DNA of 64,000 nucleotides, from the NCBI RefSeq assembly GCF_000026545.1, contig NC_011601.1, one strand, 5' to 3'. This DNA is from Escherichia coli O127:H6 str. E2348/69 (GTDB lineage: Bacteria > Pseudomonadota > Gammaproteobacteria > Enterobacterales > Enterobacteriaceae). A model generated the notes under the pieces. It was not told the origin of the DNA. It saw nothing but the letters and a program-made list of their open reading frames with translations, and did not search any database. The position numbers were made by a program, and so were the translations under genes. This document shows, piece after piece, positions 1,361 through 12,090 of the stretch (within the stretch, counting starts at the first letter, position 1; each line of letters opens with the position of its first letter).

Positions 1361-2620
1361 ATGGCAAAGCTGACAGATATCCAAATCAAGTCATGGATTA
1401 AGGCAGGAGAACGCTTCGAGGGGCGCTCTGACGGCAACGGGCTATACCTTCGCTATCGAGTGGGGGATAAAGTGCCTGTATGGCGTTTTCGATATCAGTT
1501 CGCTGGGAAATCACGGGTAATGCTTATTGGATCTTATAGCGAAATATCCCTTTCCAAAGCACGGGAAATAGCCAAGGAATTATCCGCACGTGTAGCCCTG
1601 GGCTTCGATGTCGCCGGGGAAAAGAAAGCGCGAAAAGCGGCTGCTATAGAAAAGATGGAGCGGGAGAAAAACGCGCTTCGCGTGTCAGAGCTAGCAACCG
1701 AGTATTTCGAACGGCAGATTTTGGGACGCTGGAAACATCCCGATCTTCTGCGCCGGAGAATCGATAAGGATATCAACCCACATATTGGCAACATGAAGAT
1801 AGAGGACGTAAAACCCCGTCATATTGATGCGATGCTACAGAGCGTTGTTGATCGTGGCGCTCCAACCGTAGCTAATGACGTTCTGCGCTGGACTAAACGC
1901 ATATTCGATTATGCTATCAAGCGTCATGCACTGGAATTAAACCCAGCTGGAGCATTTGATCTGTCAGACGCTGGCGGGCAGGAAAGTAGCCGTATGCGCT
2001 GGCTGACCCGTGAAGAACTTATACGTTTTTTCCAAGCTATGCGCACTGCAAAAGGATTCAGCCGCGAGAACGAGCTGACCATGAAGCTAATCCTCTGCCT
2101 GTGTTGTCGCAAAATGGAGCTGTGCGGTGCTCAGTGGGATGAATTCGACCTTGATGAAGCAGTGTGGCATCTACCAGCAGAACGCGTTAAAAACGGCGAC
2201 GCTATTGATATACCACTACCTCCACCTGCGGTTGGTTGGTTGAGAGAGCTTCGCACTATCGCGGGCAGTGGGAGTAAATGGGTTCTCCCCGCGCGGAAGA
2301 TGCAACACCGCATGATTCCCCACATTCAGGAAAGCACACTCCCAGTGGCGCTGGCAAAAGTACGCCGCGAAATGCCAGAAGTACCAAACTTCACAATTCA
2401 CGATTTCAGGCGTACCGCCCGCACCCATTTAGCGGCGTTGGGTGTCGATCCCGTAGTCGCAGAACGTTGCCTGAATCACCGCATTAAAGGCGTTGAGGGT
2501 ATCTACAACCGCCACCAGTACTTTGAAGAACGACGGGCAGCCCTGGAACTGTGGGCGGGGCTTCTGGTTTCGCTTGAACGAGGGGAAAACTACAATGTTA
2601 TTCCTTTATCTAAAATATAA
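1361..2620 (+). CDS. int: Tyrosine recombinase, P4-type integrase (N-terminal DUF4102-like arm-binding domain plus catalytic domain), 419 aa
   Basis: MAKLTDIQIKSWIKAGERFEGRSDGNGLYLRYRVGDKVPVWRFRYQFAGKSRVMLIGSY is the typical P4/CP4-57 integrase N-terminus. The C-terminal part has HDFRRTARTHL and a terminal ...GIYNRH... tyrosine region. An AGGTGA SD lies 5 nt upstream of the ATG at 1361. Confidence 0.9.
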   Translation: MAKLTDIQIKSWIKAGERFEGRSDGNGLYLRYRVGDKVPVWRFRYQFAGKSRVMLIGSYSEISLSKAREIAKELSARVALGFDVAGEKKARKAAAIEKMEREKNALRVSELATEYFERQILGRWKHPDLLRRRIDKDINPHIGNMKIEDVKPRHIDAMLQSVVDRGAPTVANDVLRWTKRIFDYAIKRHALELNPAGAFDLSDAGGQESSRMRWLTREELIRFFQAMRTAKGFSRENELTMKLILCLCCRKMELCGAQWDEFDLDEAVWHLPAERVKNGDAIDIPLPPPAVGWLRELRTIAGSGSKWVLPARKMQHRMIPHIQESTLPVALAKVRREMPEVPNFTIHDFRRTARTHLAALGVDPVVAERCLNHRIKGVEGIYNRHQYFEERRAALELWAGLLVSLERGENYNVIPLSKI

Positions 2621-2636
2621 AAGTTTTGTTTGAAGG

Positions 2637-2739
2637 TATTCACCCTATTCACCTTTTTAATTAACTTCATGATTTTAAATAATAAAAAAGGGTGAATACT
2701 TACAGTAAAACTAATCACCTTAGTATTCACCTGTTCACC
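2637..2739. repeat. Iteron cluster (ori-like): six copies of T(A/G)TTCACC around an AT-rich spacer
   Basis: TATTCACC is at 2637, 2646 and 2724. TGTTCACC is at 2732. Degenerate TAATCACC is at 2712. Inverted GGTGAATA is at 2691. The 2654-2690 spacer is almost pure A/T. TGTTCACC is the type I iteron I recall being bound by P4 alpha protein at ori and crr. Confidence 0.65.
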
Positions 2740-2939
2740 TTCTAAAGCTGCTGTGGCTGCTCCCCTTGCCCGAAAACACGCCAGCCACCAGCGTTAAAAA
2801 AAACTACAAAAATCATCATCGTACAGATCTGTACGATGACGCCAGCACTCACCCTACAAAACAACCTAACTTATTGATTTCAAAAGTAGAGAAAATCTGC
2901 TTTATGCCACTAGCTCGCACCCGTCCCCAAAAAGAAAAA

Positions 2940-2966
2940 GCCCGCGCTGGAGACGCACGGGCTTTT
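2940..2966. terminator. Bidirectional hairpin terminator between the int/iteron region and the cargo operon
   Basis: GCCCGCG-N9-CACGGGC is flanked by A-rich sequence upstream and TTTT downstream, so a T-run follows the hairpin on both strands. Confidence 0.5.
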
Positions 2967-3123
2967 GGGTACCGATAACCATGTTTGGAATCAACTCATT
3001 GAGTTCTGACCTCAATTTGCATGTTATCACAAGAAAAACACATTGTAATAATTGCAACAACGAATATCATCATTGCATATAATGAAACATAAATATCCGA
3101 TAGAACATACTGAGGTCTGACCG

Positions 3124-3675
3124 ATGCAAGATATTACAAACATCGCAGTGACTGGCGAAGATGGCGTGGTGACGTATGCCGACGGCAGTAAAGAGGAGTT
3201 CCAGTGCAGCGGAACCGTTGCGACCATCATTGCAAGTCTTGCAACGACACTCGAGAAAGAACGCAAAATGCGCATCGCCACCGGCGACCGCCTGCGCCGC
3301 ATGTACACCCGCGACAGTGATATGATTTCCCGCGGTTTGAATGGCACGTCTGCTACTTCCACGGCACCGACAGCAATGAATGCTGAGTTCATGCGTCTGG
3401 TACGTGCCGTAGCGCCGAAATACGATTCAGCACTGCCCGACGCCGACCCGCGCATCGTTGCGCTCGATGTGCTGCGCTACGCCCCTGCTGAGGCGTTCAG
3501 CGCCGTACACCCTACCCCAATGTCAGAAATCCAGCTGGATCAGGCTATCGATATACTCGAGCAGGTTGGCGACTACATGAAAGCAAACAATATCGCTCCG
3601 AAAATAATTTCTACAGGAGACGCAATCCGCAGCATCAATGCTGACAACGCCACCTTCTGGGGCAAAAAACACTAA
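3124..3675 (+). CDS. Hypothetical protein, 183 aa (cargo operon 1, gene 1)
   Basis: A GAGG SD lies about 9 nt upstream of the ATG. I recognise no family. The C-terminal motif INADNATFW is shared with the next ORF. Confidence 0.65.
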   Translation: MQDITNIAVTGEDGVVTYADGSKEEFQCSGTVATIIASLATTLEKERKMRIATGDRLRRMYTRDSDMISRGLNGTSATSTAPTAMNAEFMRLVRAVAPKYDSALPDADPRIVALDVLRYAPAEAFSAVHPTPMSEIQLDQAIDILEQVGDYMKANNIAPKIISTGDAIRSINADNATFWGKKH

Positions 3676-3688
3676 AGAGATATGAAGC

Positions 3689-3877
3689 ATGTCTATCTAT
3701 GACCCGAAATTAGCCGCAGGCAACCCACAGCGCGCCCACCGCCCAATGCTGACCCGTCAGGATCTTGAAACGGCAAAGGCACGCAATAACTTCGATCGCC
3801 AGAGTCGCAACCTGCAGCAACTCAACGAATCAAATGCACGGTTCTGGAGTGAACAGAATGAGAAAGCCAAACGTTAA
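3689..3877 (+). CDS. Hypothetical small protein, 62 aa (cargo operon 1, gene 2)
   Basis: It starts 13 nt after gene 1. It carries LNESNARFW, similar to the gene 1 C-terminus. Its 3' end overlaps the gene 3 start by 20 nt. Confidence 0.5.
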   Translation: MSIYDPKLAAGNPQRAHRPMLTRQDLETAKARNNFDRQSRNLQQLNESNARFWSEQNEKAKR

Positions 3878-4034
3878 GCCGGTCCTGCTGTCCGCCGAGC
3901 AGATGCAGGCCATACGCAACATTCAGGAACGTGAACGCCAGCGCTCCAATCTCGGCGTCGCTCCCACCGTTCACCAGATTGCCCGCGGCCTCATGGCTAA
4001 GGCTCTGGCCTCACTGGCAAGCGAGGGCGCGTAA
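3858..4034 (+). CDS. Small putative ribbon-helix-helix-like protein, 58 aa (cargo operon 1, gene 3)
   Basis: The ATG at 3858 has a GGAG SD 8 nt upstream, within the longer track ORF 3765-4034. MRKPNVKPVLLSAEQMQAIRNIQERERQR...TVHQIARGLMAKALASL has a strand-helix-helix pattern. The stop overlaps the next start as TAATG. Confidence 0.5.
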   Translation: MRKPNVKPVLLSAEQMQAIRNIQERERQRSNLGVAPTVHQIARGLMAKALASLASEGA

Positions 4035-4765
4035 TGGGCGCCATTCACCAGATATATGAGCAGGAAATGTTCTATAACTGGATAGGCGATGGTAAACGAT
4101 GTGTAGCATTCCACGAAGCGGGCCATGCAGTAGCCGCATGGCTTATTCGCTTAGATATGCAGGTTATCGCCATTATGGATGAATCCGGCTACGTTGCTGG
4201 CGAACATGTACATGAAGCCCAGTGTTTGGGCGTTGTTAAACACGGCATAATCCACAGCCACGATCTCAGGCGTTTGCGGGAGAGTAAATCTGGTGTAGTT
4301 GGGCACGATGGCAAAGTTATCCCTTTCATACGCTACTACGCGGAAGGTATAAAGCGCGATGCAACAAAGGCCGCTTTTGTAGCCCTCGCTGGACCAGTAA
4401 GCGAAGCCATTTACGAAAATAACGAAATTTTCAATATAAAGTATTCACTCCCTCACCGCTATGACATGGCTAACGTAAATGACATGCTCGATTTAATATG
4501 TGCCACGGATAAGCGAATTAACAGGAAGTTAATGCTTTCTAAACTTGTTGAAAAGACCAAATTCCTCATGACTCAATACTGGCCGGAAGTAGGAAAAATA
4601 GCGCATTTGCTTGAGCGGGATAACATTGTTAATGGCCGCGATGTTAGCTCGCTAATCGGCCTCAACGTCATTGACCGGGCAACGCCATTTTTGGTATCTG
4701 ACTTGAGCAGTACATTTGCTCATCTCCCGTACTCGTCCCTGCCTCCGAATGAATTAGCAACTTGA
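4034..4765 (+). CDS. Stand-alone FtsH-like (peptidase M41-type) zinc metalloprotease domain protein, 243 aa, with no AAA+ module and no TM segment
   Basis: FHEAGHAVAAW (HEAGH at nt 4112-4126) matches the FtsH zinc site. Later segments (VALAGPVSEAIY, MANVNDMLDLI, KIAHLLERDNIVNGRDVSSLI) parallel the FtsH protease domain by eye. There is no Walker A/B. Confidence 0.7.
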   Translation: MGAIHQIYEQEMFYNWIGDGKRCVAFHEAGHAVAAWLIRLDMQVIAIMDESGYVAGEHVHEAQCLGVVKHGIIHSHDLRRLRESKSGVVGHDGKVIPFIRYYAEGIKRDATKAAFVALAGPVSEAIYENNEIFNIKYSLPHRYDMANVNDMLDLICATDKRINRKLMLSKLVEKTKFLMTQYWPEVGKIAHLLERDNIVNGRDVSSLIGLNVIDRATPFLVSDLSSTFAHLPYSSLPPNELAT

Positions 4766-4777
4766 AGACAGTAAAGT

Positions 4778-4802
4778 AGCCATGCATTTAACACGCATGG
4801 CT
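4778..4802. terminator. Bidirectional hairpin between the two convergent cargo operons
   Basis: A perfect 8-bp stem AGCCATGC / GCATGGCT with a 9-nt loop lies in the 47-nt gap between the stops at 4765 and 4813. Confidence 0.55.
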
Positions 4803-4812
4803 ATGTGAACAT

Positions 4813-6036
4813 TTAAGAATTAGAGCGCTTAGGCGATCGCGTAAATTGCACTAAAGCCCCTTTATGATCGTTAGCCTGCACATCACGATGCTCAACCAAC
4901 ATAGATTTTAATTTTGCCAGATGCACAACAGCAGCCTTCTTGCCAGTCAGGTACCCCTCGGGCAAACCAGCAATCATTTCCACATCAATAGCAGATAAAC
5001 CTGCGAATGCAGCAAGCCGTTCAACTGAAATGATTCCAGACGATGCCAGCAATTCAATAGTACGTTTCAACAAACGTGGTTTTTCAGGCTCACGATAATC
5101 ATCTCCCGGCTCTGATTTCGCTCCCCAACGTGCTGAACGACGCTTATAAAGATTTTGTTTCTCTTCTTCCGTAATAATATGCAGCACATGTAAACGCATG
5201 ATACTTGCCGCAACGGAAATACCATAGCGTTGTTTAATTAAAAGCAAGCTATCTAATGTTACCGGGGTCCTAATTTCTTCGGCAAATGTCTCAGCAGGAA
5301 GCAGCAGTGCTCCCGCAAATTTATGAGCCTGACTTTCCTTCAGCTTATAACGTTCGGCTTCGAGTTCGTTGCCAACATAGCGGTGAAGGATCAGATGACC
5401 AATTTCGTGAGCAAGGTCAAATCTGCTACGAAAAGCATTACCTTTATCTGAAGAGAGGAGAACAAAAGGAACACCTAAAGTCTCACTCCAGGCAGAAAGC
5501 CCTTCAATCTGCGCAACGCCTGTTTCTTCTCTAATAACGATAATACCATTACTCTCTGCGGCTAAAGCAAGATCCGGTATTTCCTTTGTACCAAGATTCC
5601 AAAGAGCACGGCACTCATTAGCAGCGTCTTCAATATCTGCATCACTAATTTCATCAATGTTTGTAAAGCTACGACGCGGTAGTTTTAGCTCCGGCAGATC
5701 TACAAACTCAGTCAGCTTAGTAACTAACTCATTAGCCCAATGGATTCGAGTTTCTAACATTGCTCGTGCAGCTACATGAGCTGATGCATTGCTTCTGAAC
5801 AGAGGCTTTGACATCCCCTTCAACAGAGGGCGCGTAAACCATTCAGGTGTAACATTTACGACAGTGGCCAGACGTTCTAAAGCCTCAGACTCTGGAGCCT
5901 GTTGACCGGAACGCCATTTGCTAATGGTTGCTGGTGATACACCCACCATAGTAGCTAATTGAGTTTGTGATAGCCGCCGGGCGGCTAGTACCTGTGCTAA
6001 CCTGCCCGGTTGAAATTCGGCGACGCCTCGGCTCAT
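4813..6036 (-). CDS. XRE-family HTH fused to an ImmA/IrrE-type (M78, COG2856) zinc peptidase domain with a C-terminal extension, 407 aa
   Basis: The N-terminus LAQVLAARRLSQTQLATMVGVSPATISKWRSGQQAP is a classic XRE HTH. HEIGHLILH is at aa 210-218 (HEIGH at nt 5395-5409). The start overlaps the upstream gene stop as ATGA, with a GAGGAAG SD. Confidence 0.8.
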   Translation of the reverse strand: MSRGVAEFQPGRLAQVLAARRLSQTQLATMVGVSPATISKWRSGQQAPESEALERLATVVNVTPEWFTRPLLKGMSKPLFRSNASAHVAARAMLETRIHWANELVTKLTEFVDLPELKLPRRSFTNIDEISDADIEDAANECRALWNLGTKEIPDLALAAESNGIIVIREETGVAQIEGLSAWSETLGVPFVLLSSDKGNAFRSRFDLAHEIGHLILHRYVGNELEAERYKLKESQAHKFAGALLLPAETFAEEIRTPVTLDSLLLIKQRYGISVAASIMRLHVLHIITEEEKQNLYKRRSARWGAKSEPGDDYREPEKPRLLKRTIELLASSGIISVERLAAFAGLSAIDVEMIAGLPEGYLTGKKAAVVHLAKLKSMLVEHRDVQANDHKGALVQFTRSPKRSNS

Positions 6037-6680
6037 ACATTATCTTCCTCGGTTCCATCTTTTCTGATAATGCCCCTTTTGAGCCCAGGGAATGCATTAT
6101 CTTCTTGGGACGGAACTACATCATATCGGGTTAAAAAAAGTTCAAGTGGCTCATGAAAAACCCAGCGCTTCCCATCAGAACTTGGTACAACAAGCTCTAT
6201 AGACATCGGAGCTTCAGGCTGAATCTGCAACGAACCGGAAAAACGGCATACTACGAACAGTGTAGCTTTTGGCACATCAGAACCATCGGAGAATAAATCC
6301 GGTTGCACCATTTTTTCCACAAACACGTTCTCAGAAATGAGTTCTTGCTTACGTTTGCTACGGAATAATCTCTTCCACTGGTTATCATTGTAGCTTTCAC
6401 GAACAATCGTGAATATACCACTATGGCCTTCTACAATACGGTTACCACGCAGCTTTCCAGGATTACAACCGTTGGCCTCAAACACCTCATAAATAGTTTC
6501 ATTCAGGTTTAAATGACGATCATAACCAAGCGCGGTCGATCTGTGATCTAGCTTCTTCTTTTGAGCATAATCGTAAGAACGCTTTGATGCCGCGTAAATC
6601 GCGTCAGAAAGGGCCATGAAGAGTTGTTTTGAAACATTCTGAACGATGAGATCTGCCACTTTGGATTTTTTCACGACCAT
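6033..6680 (-). CDS. Hypothetical protein, 215 aa, first gene of cargo operon 2
   Basis: It is an intact ORF with an AGGA SD. It is translationally coupled (ATGA) to the XRE-ImmA gene. I recognise no family. Confidence 0.65.
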   Translation of the reverse strand: MVVKKSKVADLIVQNVSKQLFMALSDAIYAASKRSYDYAQKKKLDHRSTALGYDRHLNLNETIYEVFEANGCNPGKLRGNRIVEGHSGIFTIVRESYNDNQWKRLFRSKRKQELISENVFVEKMVQPDLFSDGSDVPKATLFVVCRFSGSLQIQPEAPMSIELVVPSSDGKRWVFHEPLELFLTRYDVVPSQEDNAFPGLKRGIIRKDGTEEDNV

Positions 6681-6683
6681 TTC

Positions 6684-6702
6684 CTATCACTGTCACTGAT
6701 AG
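6684..6702. promoter_or_regulatory. Operator-like inverted repeat CTATCA-N7-TGATAG at the start of cargo operon 2
   Basis: CTATCACTGTCACTGATAG lies 4 nt upstream of the 6680 start codon, overlaps the SD, and contains an internal tandem TCACTG. Confidence 0.45.
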
Positions 6703-7209
6703 CCGTGATTTTATATCAGTATTTTTTCGTGTGTCCATAACGCAATCAATTATTTTTTCCTTTGTCAGCAAGAATTATATAAAAAGCACTATCATGACAG
6801 GATTTGGGCCACTAACCTTTCACAGACTCTTGAAGTCCTAGAAAAAAGCAATGGCACAAGGTGTCCTTGCCGGGAGAAAAATCATCTGGCTACCAGCAAC
6901 CTTATAGATTCCAGATCAACGTAATATCAAAGTAAAACGTCCATTTCCGGTACCATATTTGGTCATTACGACGGGGGAAACTTATACCCACTGCTGCCCC
7001 ATCGTCAGCGCCGACAGGGACCTATGCCGCAAGGTATAAGGCAAAATTGGCATTTTCGCTATTCCCCCTGCCCGTATTTTTTGGCTTACTGGAATTTCTC
7101 TATCTAACACAATGAACTTGAGGCTATTCCGACAGGGAGAAAAGCGATCTACGCCTGACCGCCTGCCTCAGCAATCATCCAGGCAAGTACGTGTGTAAGG
7201 CTAACGCGA

Positions 7210-7890
7210 ATGAGTGATTTTTATTCCCCTCTACCAAGCTATGATCTTGTCCGGGCAGCGGAGATGCTGACTGATAAGGGGGCAAATTGTACCGGTAACG
7301 ATTTATTGGAACTATGGAACCAAGGCGTTATCGAGTTGTGTTTTTCTCTGCCGGACTACATTGCTTGTGAAGATGTTAATTTTCCCGGGCATGGTCACAG
7401 CATTTTGTTATCCGTGGATCCGATTAGCTTCAACCTTTTCTGGCTAAATGTTGATTACCCACCGAACTTAAATGCTAACTTTTCTGTGAAAGAATATGGC
7501 TCAGATAGTGAATTCCATGAGCAGTCCCTATGGATACCAACAGAACCGCACTACAACACTCACCATGATAACGGGGAAGGGCTTTGCGAAGCGTTAAGGA
7601 ATACTTATGGCCGGGAAAATTTACGAATACCAGGTGTCGAATTGCAAAAGGTTTGGCGCTTTTTGATCGGTCAGCCTTATGAAAAAAAGCCAACGCCTGA
7701 GCGTATCACCGCTAAGCAATGCCGCTTTATCGTCGCATTACTCAGATCGTATAACCTGACTGACGATGATTTTAAGGGGAGCATTAGGGACCTGAGAATT
7801 AAGATATCTAACCGGATCCCTTCAATCGGTGATCCTGAAATCGATGATAATACCCTTACTGACTGGCTGAAGAAGGGAGGGGTTCGGTAG
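7210..7890 (+). CDS. Hypothetical protein, 226 aa, first gene of the rightward alpA operon
   Basis: It is an intact ORF after a 529-bp intergenic region. I recognise no family. Confidence 0.6.
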   Translation: MSDFYSPLPSYDLVRAAEMLTDKGANCTGNDLLELWNQGVIELCFSLPDYIACEDVNFPGHGHSILLSVDPISFNLFWLNVDYPPNLNANFSVKEYGSDSEFHEQSLWIPTEPHYNTHHDNGEGLCEALRNTYGRENLRIPGVELQKVWRFLIGQPYEKKPTPERITAKQCRFIVALLRSYNLTDDDFKGSIRDLRIKISNRIPSIGDPEIDDNTLTDWLKKGGVR

Positions 7891-7891
7891 C

Positions 7892-7928
7892 TGAGTTTTC
7901 ATAACTCCGATGAGTTTTCAATAACTCC
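7892..7928 (+). repeat. Tandem direct repeat TGAGTTTTCA(A)TAACTCC x2
   Basis: The copies are at 7892-7908 and 7911-7928 and differ by one extra A. They lie immediately after the 7890 stop. Confidence 0.7.
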
Positions 7929-7957
7929 CCCACCCGTAACCACCTACCCCGTAGCCT

Positions 7958-7993
7958 TGCGATTACCTTCTCACTCAATAGCAGGTAATCGCA
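7958..7993 (+). promoter_or_regulatory. Hairpin able to sequester the alpA SD and start codon
   Basis: There is a perfect 10-bp inverted repeat, TGCGATTACC (7958-7967) and GGTAATCGCA (7984-7993). The right arm contains the AGGTAA SD and the A of the ATG. Confidence 0.45.
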
Positions 7994-8205
7994 TGAAATC
8001 GCAAACTTTCACCTTTCCTACCAATGGCAACGCACGAGCCAAACAAGTGGCGCACTATCTTGGAGTGCATATCAGCACCGTATGGCGCTATGCAAAACGT
8101 CCTGATTTTCCAAAACCCCACCAGTTAACCGACGGCGTGACCGTCTTTGACGCCGCAGCTATTCGCCAATGGAACAAGCAAAAAACCGGGGGTGAGAATG
8201 CTTAA
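7993..8205 (+). CDS. alpA: AlpA-family (MerR-like HTH) phage/island regulatory protein, 70 aa
   Basis: RAKQVAHYLGVHISTVWRYAKRPDFPKPHQLTDGVTVFDAAAIRQWNKQK matches the AlpA/Vis-type pattern. Confidence 0.8.
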   Translation: MKSQTFTFPTNGNARAKQVAHYLGVHISTVWRYAKRPDFPKPHQLTDGVTVFDAAAIRQWNKQKTGGENA

Positions 8206-8259
8206 CGCGACCGTGAGCACACCCTGCACGACAGCCGTTCGATCTCCATTGTTGGCGGG

Positions 8260-8454
8260 TCAGGCTTTCGGCTCAATACCCAGCCGCTGGAGTTCTTTGC
8301 GCCCCAAGGTTTTCATCCAATTAGCTAAACTCATACCTGCATCTCGTGCGGCGGCCTCGAATTGCTCTTTCAATTCTGGGGCGATCCTCACTTGGAAAGC
8401 TGGTGCCTTTCCCCTGCCTTTGGGCTGTTTATCACGCTGTATTACTGTTGACAT
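8260..8454 (-). CDS. Ribbon-helix-helix (Arc/CopG-type) DNA-binding protein, 64 aa
   Basis: MSTVIQRDKQPKGRGKAPAFQVRIAPELKEQFEAAARDAGMSLANWMKTLGRKEL is a typical RHH signature. The start is chosen at the internal Met of track ORF 8260-8547. Confidence 0.65.
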   Translation of the reverse strand: MSTVIQRDKQPKGRGKAPAFQVRIAPELKEQFEAAARDAGMSLANWMKTLGRKELQRLGIEPKA

Positions 8455-8458
8455 GTAT

Positions 8459-8512
8459 GTACCTATTAAACTAAGATTCAAATCAATAGGTACGCACCTT
8501 AACATGTTAAGG
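8459..8512. promoter_or_regulatory. Divergent operator region: a 9-bp inverted repeat plus a 16-bp perfect palindrome
   Basis: GTACCTATT (8459-8467) pairs with AATAGGTAC (8485-8493). CCTTAACATGTTAAGG is at 8497-8512. Both lie between the RHH gene start (8454) and the rightward operon start (8589). Confidence 0.5.
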
Positions 8513-8588
8513 TCAGAAAAGACAACGCCCCGTAGTGCTCGCAACACATACGGGGCGTCTAACCAACAACGTTACGGAGACTAACGCT

Positions 8589-8789
8589 ATGGCTAAGCCG
8601 CAGTGTACCCAAACTCACCCCAAATATCAGTATCGTTTTATGGCGCTCGATCGCGCTGACCGCCAGGCAAAACCCTGCAAAATCATTGTTGAGGCCACCA
8701 GCGAGCATGAAGCACGTAAGGTGTTGGCACCTCACTACATCCTGTCACTGTCCGCCGTTTTGCCAGTTCAGGAGGTGAGCCATGTTTAA
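8589..8789 (+). CDS. Small protein, 66 aa, possibly Icd-like (host cell division inhibitor-like)
   Basis: The ATG has a GGAGA SD 8 nt upstream. MAKPQCTQTHPKYQYRFMALDRADRQAKPCKIIVEATSEHEARKVL resembles my memory of Icd-like proteins found upstream of primases in P4-like islands. This is unverified. Confidence 0.45.
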   Translation: MAKPQCTQTHPKYQYRFMALDRADRQAKPCKIIVEATSEHEARKVLAPHYILSLSAVLPVQEVSHV

Positions 8790-8976
8790 TGTCATTGTCA
8801 CGGTCACCTATCACTTTTCGGGAACGATCCGTCGTTTTGCTATTCCGGAACGTTTCAATAATCGTGAGCTCGCAGAGAAAGCGGCGCAGCAGTTAACCCA
8901 TACCAGCTATCTGGATGATGGAGTGAGCAGAATTGTGACCCACGCGGCGGAAGTAGTGGAGGTGCGCCATGTATGA
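8782..8976 (+). CDS. Hypothetical small protein, 64 aa
   Basis: Its start overlaps the previous stop by 8 nt (translational coupling). I recognise no family. Confidence 0.5.
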   Translation: MFNVIVTVTYHFSGTIRRFAIPERFNNRELAEKAAQQLTHTSYLDDGVSRIVTHAAEVVEVRHV

Positions 8977-9157
8977 CGCCTACCTGAACCCAAAGGACGC
9001 ACTCCGTCCGATCGCCGTTGCACTCGAGGCTGCGCAGTTTATCGCGCTTGACCCGGAGAATACCGATTTAGCCCATGAGCTGATCGCCTGGGCACTTGAA
9101 ACAGCCGCGCGTGCCTCAGCTGCGCAACGTAACACCCCGGAGGTGGACAATGCTTAA
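8969..9157 (+). CDS. Hypothetical small protein, 62 aa
   Basis: Its start overlaps the previous stop by 8 nt. I recognise no family. Confidence 0.5.
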   Translation: MYDAYLNPKDALRPIAVALEAAQFIALDPENTDLAHELIAWALETAARASAAQRNTPEVDNA

Positions 9158-9458
9158 TCTCAATACATGGAATCTTTTCACGCTGCCGCTGAACGGTGGC
9201 GCAGCTGAGACAGCGCCGGACGATCTGCGTCTGCTGGCCGCTGTGGGGGACGAGGCTCGCAACAACTACCTGCGCGGTGTAAGCGCCATCGGCAATCTGA
9301 TCTTCTGGGCATGTGATAACCCCAACTACACCGACCATCAAGCTGACCTGCCAGCGCTGGGCGCATTCCTGAAACATACCGCTGATATGGCGCGCGCTGC
9401 CGAATTCATGGCAGGACATCTGGACTCACTGGCTGACGGCAAAGAGGGAGGCAAATAA
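9150..9458 (+). CDS. Hypothetical protein, 102 aa
   Basis: The internal ATG at 9150 has a GGAGG SD and overlaps the previous stop (ATGCTTAA). I recognise no family. Confidence 0.5.
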   Translation: MLNLNTWNLFTLPLNGGAAETAPDDLRLLAAVGDEARNNYLRGVSAIGNLIFWACDNPNYTDHQADLPALGAFLKHTADMARAAEFMAGHLDSLADGKEGGK

Positions 9459-9679
9459 TGCCACGCAAACATCGCTCATCAAGCAACCTGATCAAATTAA
9501 TGGAACGCCAGAAAGGTATAGGGCGCGACGATATCCAGATCGCAGATAATCGCCCTACATTCATGCCGTACGAGCCGAACGGAACCTACGCTACAAACCG
9601 CCATACCCGCCGTATGCTACGCAAGCTCCACGGCATCCAGGCAAAAAGAATGTGTGATCTGAAAGGAGGTCAGAAATGA
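9458..9679 (+). CDS. Hypothetical basic small protein, 73 aa
   Basis: It overlaps the previous gene as TAATG, and its stop overlaps the primase start as ATGA. Confidence 0.5.
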   Translation: MPRKHRSSSNLIKLMERQKGIGRDDIQIADNRPTFMPYEPNGTYATNRHTRRMLRKLHGIQAKRMCDLKGGQK

Positions 9680-12090
9680 GTGGATTCGATCACCTGATGG
9701 AGCAGGGGCAGAAACGCACCCCTGCTCGTTTTACTGCAAATAGCTTTTCTGACCTGTGCAACGCTATTCTATCGCATCGTGTGCAAATTTCCATCACACA
9801 GGAAATGACGGATGAAGAACGGCGCAAAGAAAAGCAGAAACTGTACTGGTTCTCGGCAACTACCCAGCAGGACGGGCAGCGACGTAAACCCGAAAACATG
9901 GCACCGTGTGCTTTCGGTATGCTGGACATTGACGGCAGCACTCCCGGTGCAATCACAGCACTTGTACAGGTGTTCCGGCGATACTCAATGCTGGTGTACC
10001 AGACGGCCAGCTATACGACGGATGAACCTCGTCTGCGTATTGTGTGCGAGCTTTCCCGAGCGGTTGAATCTGACTACCGCCGAGCGACAGGCGAATCCAT
10101 AGAAACTTTGTTGATGCAGGAGGCTGGATTCTCATTCGCCAGCCTGGCGGATAAGAAAGCACGCTGGGAGAACGGCAGCGATTATGTTGTCTTTGACCGC
10201 AATGTATACGGCGCTCAAAGCTATTGCTACTGTCCACACACTGGAGCGAAAGCCCAGAATTACGCGGGCGCGGTAATCGACGTAGGGGCGTTACCGGAAC
10301 CCGCCCAGCCACCAGCGAAGGCGGCCAAAAGCAAGGCAAAGAAACAGCGCCAGCGTGACGCCGCGGCGGTAATAGATGCTGATTTTGACGATCTGAGCGC
10401 CGGACCGGATAACTTCCTTATCGCCGACCTGCGCAGCGCACTCTGGTTTCCCTCCATGCTGCAAAAGGCATGGGACAATGGGGCGTGGATTGAGCAGGGC
10501 TACCGCCTTGCATCTCTCAAAGGCACCGATTTTGAGGACGACGCGCGGCAACTGTGGGTCGAGTGGTCATTGACCGCAGCGGATGGCTGGCCTGATGAAG
10601 AACTTGATGAAGTCGCGGCACAACGCTGGAATGGTCTCGCCCCTGACAAAACCAGCTATAAAGCTATTTTTACTGATGCTCAGGCGCAGGGGTGGAATAA
10701 TCCGGGCAAATGGCGAGCAAAGGCCGCGTACATTGAGAAAATGGCCCCCAGCACACGCGGTGAACTGCTGGCGCAATATTACGGCAACGTATGCCTGAAA
10801 GCTGATGGCAACATGGTTTATCACTATACCGGGCAGGTGTGGGAGCACATCGCCGATGCCGAGTTGCGCCGCCAGCTTTCGCAGATTTTCAAAGATAACG
10901 GGGTCCCCTTTACACCGTACGAGGTTAAAAGCGCGATTGAGGCTATGGGAATGCTTCTGCCTTTAATGGGAGAAACTCCTCGTAACCTGATTGGCTTTGC
11001 CAACGGCGTTTATGATCTCGAGGCGCAGCGATTCCGCCCCCACTGCCCAGACGATTGGCTGACCAGCCATAACGGCGTTGAATACACGCAGCCGGTTAAA
11101 GGCGAAACCCTGAAAAACAATGCCCCAAACTTCTGGCGCTGGCTGCATCATTCCGCAGGGGGCGACTTCGACAAAATGGAGAGAATCAAAGCCGCTCTGT
11201 ATATGGTGCTGGCAAACCGCTACGACTGGCAACTGTTCATCGAGGTTACCGGTGCTGGTGGCAGTGGTAAAAGCGTGTTCACGGGTATTGCACGTATGCT
11301 GACGGGCGAACTACACGCCACCAGCGGCACAATGGAGGACATGGACACCGCGCGCGAACGCGCATCTTTTGTCGGCAAAAGCCTGATCACCCTACCCGAC
11401 CAAGCAACATATACGGGTTCCGGGCCGGGTATCAAGGCTATAACGGGCGGCGACGTGGTAAGGATCGACCCAAAGCACGAAAAGCCATTCCATACGGTTA
11501 TTCGCGCCGTTGTCATCGCAACAAACAACGAACCTATGCGTTTCACCGAACGACAAGGCGGGATATCGCGGCGCCGGGTTATTTTCCCGTTTAACCATGA
11601 AGTGCCGGAGGCGGAACGTGATCCCCATCTGCTCGATAAAATTAAAGCCGAACTGCCGGTAATCGTCCGTGGTCTGCTGATTGACTTCGAACAGCCAGGC
11701 AAAGCCAAATCGCTACTTATCGCGCAGCGTGATTCAGCGGAAGCGCTGCAGGTGAAGAACGATAACGACCCGATGTATGGCTTTTGCTCTTACCTGCTAG
11801 GTTTGCCGAATCCCGAGGGCATGTACATGGGCGATGGGCGCATGGCGCGAGAGCCACGCATCTACCTCTATCATGCTTATCTGGCCTATCTGGAAGCCTA
11901 CGGTTATCAGAGAACCCCCACCCTACCGAAGTTCAGCGGAGATTTACGGGACACGCTCAAAGCCTTTGGTATTACTCTGGACAGTAAAAAGAGTAAAAAG
12001 GGCAAAAGATATAACGTCAATTTGTCTGACAGGGCACAAGAATGGCTGGGAGAAGACGAACTCTCAGCTGTGCCCGACACATTGCAGTAA
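9676..12090 (+). CDS. P4 alpha-like replication protein: N-terminal primase-like domain, PriCT-2-like region, D5_N/SF3 helicase P-loop, 804 aa
   Basis: Walker A GAGGSGKS is at nt 11251-11274. The surrounding ...ANRYDWQLFIEVTGAGGSGKSVF...IKAITGGDVVRIDPKHEKPF...ATNNEPMRF...GGISRRRVIFPF matches the phage/plasmid primase P4-family C-terminal domain. A candidate DxD (LDIDG) is at nt 9925-9933. Confidence 0.85.
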   Translation: MSGFDHLMEQGQKRTPARFTANSFSDLCNAILSHRVQISITQEMTDEERRKEKQKLYWFSATTQQDGQRRKPENMAPCAFGMLDIDGSTPGAITALVQVFRRYSMLVYQTASYTTDEPRLRIVCELSRAVESDYRRATGESIETLLMQEAGFSFASLADKKARWENGSDYVVFDRNVYGAQSYCYCPHTGAKAQNYAGAVIDVGALPEPAQPPAKAAKSKAKKQRQRDAAAVIDADFDDLSAGPDNFLIADLRSALWFPSMLQKAWDNGAWIEQGYRLASLKGTDFEDDARQLWVEWSLTAADGWPDEELDEVAAQRWNGLAPDKTSYKAIFTDAQAQGWNNPGKWRAKAAYIEKMAPSTRGELLAQYYGNVCLKADGNMVYHYTGQVWEHIADAELRRQLSQIFKDNGVPFTPYEVKSAIEAMGMLLPLMGETPRNLIGFANGVYDLEAQRFRPHCPDDWLTSHNGVEYTQPVKGETLKNNAPNFWRWLHHSAGGDFDKMERIKAALYMVLANRYDWQLFIEVTGAGGSGKSVFTGIARMLTGELHATSGTMEDMDTARERASFVGKSLITLPDQATYTGSGPGIKAITGGDVVRIDPKHEKPFHTVIRAVVIATNNEPMRFTERQGGISRRRVIFPFNHEVPEAERDPHLLDKIKAELPVIVRGLLIDFEQPGKAKSLLIAQRDSAEALQVKNDNDPMYGFCSYLLGLPNPEGMYMGDGRMAREPRIYLYHAYLAYLEAYGYQRTPTLPKFSGDLRDTLKAFGITLDSKKSKKGKRYNVNLSDRAQEWLGEDELSAVPDTLQ

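Follow-up and report, generated by a model that had tools for sequence, protein, structure and literature searches.

The closest described systems are presented here from three published accounts. In Gram-negative bacteria, phage-inducible chromosomal islands (PICIs) carry int, an alpA-like gene and pri in the same orientation, together with a dynamic zone that contains phage late genes or defence genes (PMC10111431). In the PICIs of E. coli, the Rpp proteins (RppA, RppB and RppC) redirect phage packaging through contact with TerS of the helper; these proteins have 144–153 residues, an N-terminal winged helix-turn-helix (HTH) and a C-terminal coiled coil, and the structure of RppC has been solved (PMC6739421). 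In SaPI1, CpmB and the scaffolding protein of phage 80alpha have a common C-terminal helix-and-hook, which docks on the same site of the capsid protein (PMC5644958). The present work deals with a window, i.e., a stretch of 64,000 nucleotides of the Escherichia coli O127:H6 str. E2348/69 genome (NC_011601.1), and specifically with two small proteins, here named P1 and P2, that are encoded side by side in an apparent PICI-type island and share a nine-residue motif ending in Trp. On balance, we lean towards the idea that this motif belongs to a docking helix that is present tethered (in P1) and free (in P2) in a leader module of these satellites, and that both forms would bind a common site that is not on the protease encoded downstream. 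The features on which the argument is based are the following:

3124..3675, + strand: P1, 183 residues, acidic, isoelectric point (pI) 5.2, RefSeq-annotated gene
3634..3660, + strand: motif copy 1, INADNATFW, residues 171-179 of P1 (ATC AAT GCT GAC AAC GCC ACC TTC TGG)
3689..3877, + strand: P2, 62 residues, basic, pI 10.5, RefSeq-annotated gene
3821..3847, + strand: motif copy 2, LNESNARFW, residues 45-53 of P2 (CTC AAC GAA TCA AAT GCA CGG TTC TGG)

The motif shared by P1 and P2

The coordinates and translations of both copies given in the original prediction were exact. Copy 1 ends four residues before the C-terminus of P1, and the Trp of the motif (W179 in P1, W53 in P2) is the sole Trp of each protein. 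Taken as a lone pair, the similarity between the two proteins is marginal: a Smith-Waterman alignment gave a score of 39 over IRSINADNATFWGKKH / LQQLNESNARFWSEQN (shuffle P = 0.005-0.008), BLASTP of P1 against P2 did not report the motif segment, and 28% of shuffles reach five identities in a 9-mer; on that basis alone a post-hoc coincidence is possible. The comparison with 66 related loci, drawn from genomes, IMG/VR and metagenomes, provides the relevant evidence. The best local alignment between P1 and P2 falls on these segments in seven of nine locus pairs, and hhalign, run with the P2 family against that of P1, revealed a single match, located exactly on the motif segments, with P = 2.6e-4 (6.7e-4 with the first, smaller alignments). 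In addition, within the 750,669 residues of six-frame open reading frames (ORFs) from the window and the 66 loci, the pattern N..N..[FYI]W is confined to P1 and P2 homologues with two exceptions, one match on the antisense strand and one unassigned ORF of 62 residues.

The motif is conserved among homologues of both proteins, with its Trp invariant in each family. W179 is present in all 23 P1 sequences compared, the most distant at 36% identity; among the 13 non-redundant P2 sequences, the most distant at 18%, W53 alone is invariant. The consensus shows hydrophobic residues at positions -11 and -8 with respect to the Trp (position 0), Asn at -7 and -4, and an aromatic residue at -1; the Trp is usually followed by Gly, Ser or Glu and then by basic or polar residues. 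Both Asn and the aromatic residue are retained in clade 1 of P1 and in the most divergent P1 homologues, among which the full N..N..[FY]W pattern is present in P0081 (INADNDKFW), P0082 (MNALNAEYW) and P0085 (INEANRKFW), and partly retained in P0083 (SEINEKFW). Among the 13 P2 sequences, Asn is found at -7 in 11 and at -4 in 10, and position -1 is occupied by F, Y or I; in the P2 proteins of clade 2, i.e., the Klebsiella-type clade, the motif is located 15-21 residues before the C-terminus. The codons of the conserved N, A, D and S residues show synonymous variation (AAT/AAC, GCT/GCC/GCA, GAC/GAT and AGT/AGC); since the synonymous sites vary freely, selection acts on the protein. A DNA repeat as the origin of the pair was discarded, given that the two 27-nucleotide segments match at only 16 of 27 bases and that their synonymous sites vary.

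The relation between the two proteins extends beyond these nine residues. A direct search with the P2 protein recovered close relatives only; nevertheless, reading the DNA 3' of P1 in the 66 loci revealed that a small ORF, often uncalled, follows P1, and P2 is found directly after P1 in every locus except L062/L063. In these, the P1 homologue P0082 (L062:6001-6624) has 207 residues, with a tail that is 17 residues longer due to an insertion, and no P2 gene was found 3' of it. This tail was placed by MAFFT in register with ordinary P1 tails; likewise, it gives an ungapped alignment of 31 residues with five P2 proteins, alignments of 31-41 columns, of which two contain a gap, with P2 proteins from eight of the nine loci tested (shuffle P <= 0.011), and an hhalign match with P2 at P = 2.3e-4. 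When P1 tails and P2 proteins are aligned jointly, they run colinearly, starting at the PK(P/Y) linker and extending through the Trp. The existence of a P1 homologue with a tail of P2 length and no P2 gene supports the view that P2 is most likely a free-standing paralogue of the P1 tail that became detached; P0082 would be a natural intermediate or fusion form. The original prediction, which described the two proteins as otherwise unrelated, was therefore right only in part, because P2 follows the entire P1 tail colinearly, beginning at the PK(P/I) linker. That P1 and P2 are fused by a frameshift in the window was discarded; the P2 frame is closed immediately 5' of its ATG by a TGA (3683-3685).

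P1 gave 41 close cluster matches in 5.8 billion proteins and 14 cluster representatives in an exhaustive HMMER search over 1.84 billion, with no annotated distant relative. The small number of clusters indicates that the family is small, narrow and restricted to Enterobacterales. The first 80 residues are variable between clades and the core (about 82-160) is highly conserved. The predicted layout consists of an N-terminal three-strand sheet with a long helix, a disordered Ser/Thr-rich linker, the helical core and, in the C-terminal part, a flexible PK linker followed by the helix that contains the motif. AlphaFold2 (AF2) structures of two family members, as single chains, show a predicted local distance difference test (pLDDT) score of 70-92 for the core (up to 92 in P0082) and of about 46-61 for the motif helix, which covers residues 164-179 (183-204 in P0082) and is preceded by a low-confidence linker; according to these models, the motif helix of P1 is probably tethered and not confidently packed on the core. 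No match to P1 was detected in Pfam, NCBIfam, PADLOC or PDB, or by fold, and none of P1, P2 and P3 (the product of the third gene) had a usable match in Pfam, NCBIfam, PHROGs or PADLOC. Many P1 homologues are labelled 'XRE family transcriptional regulator' by NCBI; this identity was discarded for P1, as no HTH of the Cro/C1 type is detectable by profile. As for annotation, the XRE name is widely applied to P1 proteins without a detectable HTH, and public assemblies often lack a call for the P2 gene.

The leader module and its genomic setting

P1 and P2, often together with P3, recur as a unit in PICI-type satellites of Enterobacterales; in most relatives the P1-P2 module is located 0.2-1.2 kb downstream of the primase gene, where the PICI late zone begins. 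The region matches E. coli E2348/69 with 100% identity; there the island has approximately 11.5 kb and is flanked by yicC (310-1173) and dinD. The remaining features, in the order of the island, are:

1362-2620: tyrosine integrase (int), Pfam match
2936..2966: GC-rich hairpin between A and T runs, bidirectional terminator-like, 12-bp stem with 7 GC pairs
3024..3070, + strand: promoter-like hexamers in an AT-rich region with repeated TTGCA(A/T) boxes
3858..4034, + strand: P3, 58 residues, basic, pI 11.4
4034..4765, + strand: HEAGH zinc metalloprotease, 243 residues, possible M41-like peptidase domain only
4813-6036, - strand: Rosmer RmrA, 407 residues, HTH and M78/IrrE peptidase (PADLOC E = 3.5e-125)
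6033-6680, - strand: Rosmer RmrT, 215 residues (PADLOC E = 8e-16)
after the Rosmer pair: ORF of 226 residues
about 7993-8205: AlpA-like HTH protein, from annotation
after the AlpA-like gene: Icd-like protein, from annotation
9676-12090: primase, from annotation

Judged by its gene set, the island (1362-12090) appears to be a phage satellite of the Gram-negative PICI type: int, an alpA-type regulator and pri are co-oriented, the size is in the range of approximately 10-15 kb, and there is no full set of virion genes; its relatives encode Phage_AlpA and D5/DUF927 primases. The Rosmer anti-phage defence pair, which is convergent with the protease gene, is cargo of the same satellite island. Outside the island, 5' of the window (L001:3505-4464), a RefSeq 'reverse transcriptase family protein' is inserted between slmA and pyrE in E2348/69 and is absent from that site in strain AUSMDU00014361; this insertion may be a retron-type element.

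The genes of P1, P2, P3 and the protease are co-oriented, with a gap of 13 nucleotides between P1 and P2, an overlap of 20 between P2 and P3, and an overlap of one between P3 and the protease. Upstream of P1, the hairpin at 2936-2966 is conserved, with AAAAAGCCC...GGGCTTTT invariant in the alignment of seven clade-1 loci, and it is kept whether the 5' gene is an integrase or a primase; it marks the 5' boundary of the module. The region 3024..3070 contains two sigma-70-like matches of 9/12, a number that is not above the shuffle expectation; the TTGCA columns are conserved in the alignment upstream of P1, and TTGCA-like boxes are also found upstream of P3 in the related island of E. coli CFS3292 (L065). 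This region is a candidate promoter/operator of an operon formed by P1, P2, P3 and the cargo. P3 can accompany P1-P2 where the protease is missing, and it can likewise accompany the protease where P1-P2 are missing. A strand-helix-helix pattern, read from its sequence alone, makes it a possible ribbon-helix-helix protein; PF20605 (Antitox_RHH) was touched by one of six P3 homologues, weakly (E = 0.077), and the P3 profile gave no match in PDB.

In the E2348/69 island, the protease is the first cargo gene after P1-P2-P3. Its HEAGH sequence is at residues 27-31. PF01434 matches the protein with 20.6 bits, under its cut-off of 29.9, and spans only 24 residues around HEAGH; TIGR01241 reaches 15.5 against a threshold of 600. 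No AAA+ domain was detected in its 243 residues by profile search, tblastn against phage genomes gave no match, and its close homologues are named 'peptidase M41 family protein' by RefSeq. Most of these homologues have 223 residues, and the similarity of the window to other genomes ends near 4693; the last 20 or so residues (about 4693-4765) resemble a junction formed by recombination with the Rosmer cargo. A second, shorter HEAGH sub-family of 177-186 residues ('MWDRNIAIHEAGHAMAAW') occupies the same slot after P3 in L015:5910-6470, L017:6028-6561, L025, L028 and L049, and escapes tblastn with the window protease at 1e-6.

In the loci without protease, this slot is filled by baseplate- or tail-like genes, i.e., those encoding Dit_like, Pam3_gp18, a 355-residue 'NWMRHFELQL' protein and tape-measure-like proteins. 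Baseplate/tail-tip-like genes were observed 1-4 kb downstream of P1 in L003, L006, L012-L014, L016, L019, L061 and L064; this set includes Dit_like, Pam3_gp18, the 355-residue protein, which has a faint similarity to E217_GP41, and a gp138_N/Apex spike. Related satellites also carry TerS-like genes (DUF5681, DUF2280 and Terminase_2). The tail-tip set suggests that related satellites supply their own tail-tip parts.

Possible roles of the shared peptide

The shared peptide could be understood as the conserved core of a short helix, found both on a flexible linker at the C-terminus of P1 and, in a second form, as the free-standing P2. P1 and P2, often with P3, would constitute a leader module that possesses a conserved terminator and promoter region of its own and opens the variable 'late/accessory' zone in PICI-type satellites of Enterobacterales. 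The motif would most likely act as a protein-protein docking surface, and both copies would bind one site, which may be on a common partner, on the conserved P1 core, or on each other; P2 would then supplement the P1 tail or compete with it. The docking partner would be other than the neighbouring protease.

Several observations weigh against docking. The profile-profile probability of the match between the two families is only 27-44%, and no docking partner was identified. Apart from P1 and P2, neither the ORFs of the loci nor 50,697 phage genomes revealed a protein family that carries the motif; the phage genomes were searched with tblastn, which misses nine-residue motifs and is a weak test for this one. 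The hydrophobic moment of the motif helix is not consistently above that of shuffles, and the claim of an amphipathic helix was dropped for this reason. In the Klebsiella-type P1 proteins both Asn, and sometimes the aromatic residue, are lost (IGDAAKKAW), so that the Trp alone is universal in P1. Finally, part of the motif region is under a second constraint at the DNA level, i.e., the Shine-Dalgarno of the next gene. In clade 1, the P2 codons TGG AGT GAA CAG are fixed, hold the GGAG Shine-Dalgarno and precede the ATG of P3 (window 3844-3860); in clade 2, the P1 codons TGG GGR are the Shine-Dalgarno of P2 (L003 about 6545-6563). Only one copy per clade is doubly constrained and yet the Trp is invariant in both copies; therefore, the Shine-Dalgarno cannot explain the motif.

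A more specific proposal, which we put forward tentatively and consider less likely than docking in general, is that P1-P2-P3 is a previously undescribed control or adaptor module of enterobacterial satellites, in which P1 and its detached tail copy P2 would compete for a single docking site in a tail-mimic switch; this switch would gate the expression or activity of the downstream cargo, whether protease, baseplate or defence genes, or would couple the satellite to the helper phage. In the passages of phage-satellite papers that were consulted, no P1-P2(-P3) leader was found.

Somewhat less probable than this switch is a sub-case of docking in which the P1 tail and P2 pair with each other in a short hetero-oligomeric coiled coil, with the Asn residues, at equivalent core positions, setting the register and the Trp residues packing against one another. 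Both copies show the same 3-4 spacing along the consensus positions, P1 is acidic and P2 basic, and the P0082 form is consistent with the Rosetta-stone logic for interacting partners. Parallel features are also found in the two proteins: in clade 2, A changes to K at -3 in both; in L010 both contain DKFW, and in L064 HVSE precedes the motif in both. On the other hand, the segment has only about two heptads, the P1 tail of clade 2 lacks the Asn residues that its P2 retains, and L062 works with a single copy.

It is rather doubtful that both copies are mimics of a helper-phage helix (of the scaffold, terminase or tail) that dock on the assembly machinery of the helper, a form of piracy for which the work on SaPI1 CpmB provides the precedent (PMC5644958). 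The module is located downstream of pri, where PICIs keep packaging and interference genes; its cargo often includes helper-type baseplate and TerS-like genes, and the variability of the N-terminal domain of P1 is as expected for helper-specific contacts. Nevertheless, tblastn against the phage genomes gave no match for P1 at E <= 0.01 and one irrelevant weak match for P2 at E <= 10, no motif is present in neighbouring prophage genes within the loci, and the E2348/69 island has no structural cargo.

According to the original prediction, the motif could be a recognition or degron tag, or a common docking motif, linking P1 and P2 functionally to the protease encoded downstream; read as a tag, it would deliver the two proteins to this HEAGH metalloprotease. 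The ssrA tag is a C-terminal degron for ClpXP and FtsH, bacterial proteases also use adaptor-docking tags, and degrons often sit near the C-terminus on a flexible tether; the P1 copy likewise lies close to the very end of the protein, beyond a flexible linker. The four genes point the same way and are closely spaced, no + strand terminator was found between them in the window scan, and the association with the protease is non-random, as roughly half of the loci have a HEAGH protease after the module. However, motif and protease dissociate in both directions. A HEAGH protease from one of the two sub-families is within 1.8 kb of the module in 29 loci, and there is no protease in 32 (29 adequately sequenced loci plus L061, L062/L063 and L064); the same P1 tail and P2 occur in L016 and in L021-23, which differ in downstream cargo, including the presence or absence of the protease. 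Conversely, the CFS3292 island, at the same yicC-dinD site (L065:4441-5752), has a P3 that is 70% identical and a protease that is 88% identical, and neither P1 nor P2 was found in it by permissive tblastn. The order in this island is primase, repeated TAGGGAT-type iterons (a probable ori), P3 and the M41-like protease; the same DNA pattern is present in about 26 complete E. coli genomes, among which CFS3292 alone was checked. The motif is equally conserved in loci with and without protease, and in the P2 proteins of clade 2 it is 15 or more residues away from the C-terminus. These dissociations leave a protease-specific degron or dock poorly supported, and we regard this interpretation as improbable; the HEAGH protease is interchangeable cargo and, judged by the comparison of loci, outside the motif system. 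From the original prediction, then, what persists is the common docking motif, which is the best general reading and agrees with the conservation of the motif, whereas the functional link to the protease is not supported, given the lack of co-inheritance.

The explanation with the least probability, largely refuted, is that the motif reflects chance or a nucleotide-level constraint (overlapping Shine-Dalgarno or gene) and is not a protein motif: the weak pairwise similarity (P about 0.007, with BLASTP silent) and the two Shine-Dalgarno overlaps, which in clade 1 extend to the start of P3, are in its favour, but the Trp is invariant in both families and both clades although one copy per clade adjoins a start codon, the other motif codons vary synonymously, the profile-profile match falls on exactly the same segments, and the pattern is otherwise almost absent from the ORFs searched.

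Comparison with known systems

If the docking interpretation is correct, PICI-type satellites of Gram-negative bacteria would have a new conserved component in the P1-P2 pair, which is located exactly where satellites keep the genes that exploit or block the helper phage, and the invariant Trp would offer a single-residue handle to find the partner. The HEAGH protease, the tail-tip genes and defence systems such as Rosmer behave as interchangeable cargo behind one leader module. The motif remains a moderate, family-specific observation.

With respect to the organization of Gram-negative PICIs, the P1-P2 module likewise heads the late/accessory zone in most relatives; unlike these, the E2348/69 lineage has the module 3' of int and not of pri. 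Like the Rpp proteins, P1 is small and its gene lies downstream of pri in PICIs of Gram-negative bacteria. Nevertheless, it is larger, with 183 residues, and the AF2 prediction gives a three-strand sheet and a long helix at its N-terminus. Membership of P1 in the Rpp family was discarded, since its profile gave no match at E <= 1 among all PDB chains in spite of the solved RppC structure.

Compared with ssrA-type tags, the motif is also a short peptide near a flexible C-terminus, encoded next to the gene of a putative FtsH-like (M41-type) peptidase. It differs in that motif and protease are not co-inherited, in that the protease has no AAA+ unfoldase, and in the internal position of the motif in the P2 proteins of clade 2.

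The closest parallel is that of CpmB and the 80alpha scaffolding protein, where two otherwise dissimilar proteins of a satellite system also have the same short C-terminal helical motif, and where one of the bearers is very small (CpmB with 72 residues, as P2 with 62). The motifs themselves are different: the one in CpmB and the scaffold is RIIK, with the N-arm of the capsid protein as its target, and the one in P1 and P2 is N..N..FW, for which no helper-phage protein was found in the ORFs of the loci or, within the limits of tblastn for nine residues, in the phage genomes. In CpmB and the scaffold the common motif acts as a docking element, as is proposed for P1 and P2. In addition, the first motif spans a satellite protein and a helper protein, while the two copies in P1 and P2 are both encoded by the satellite, side by side.

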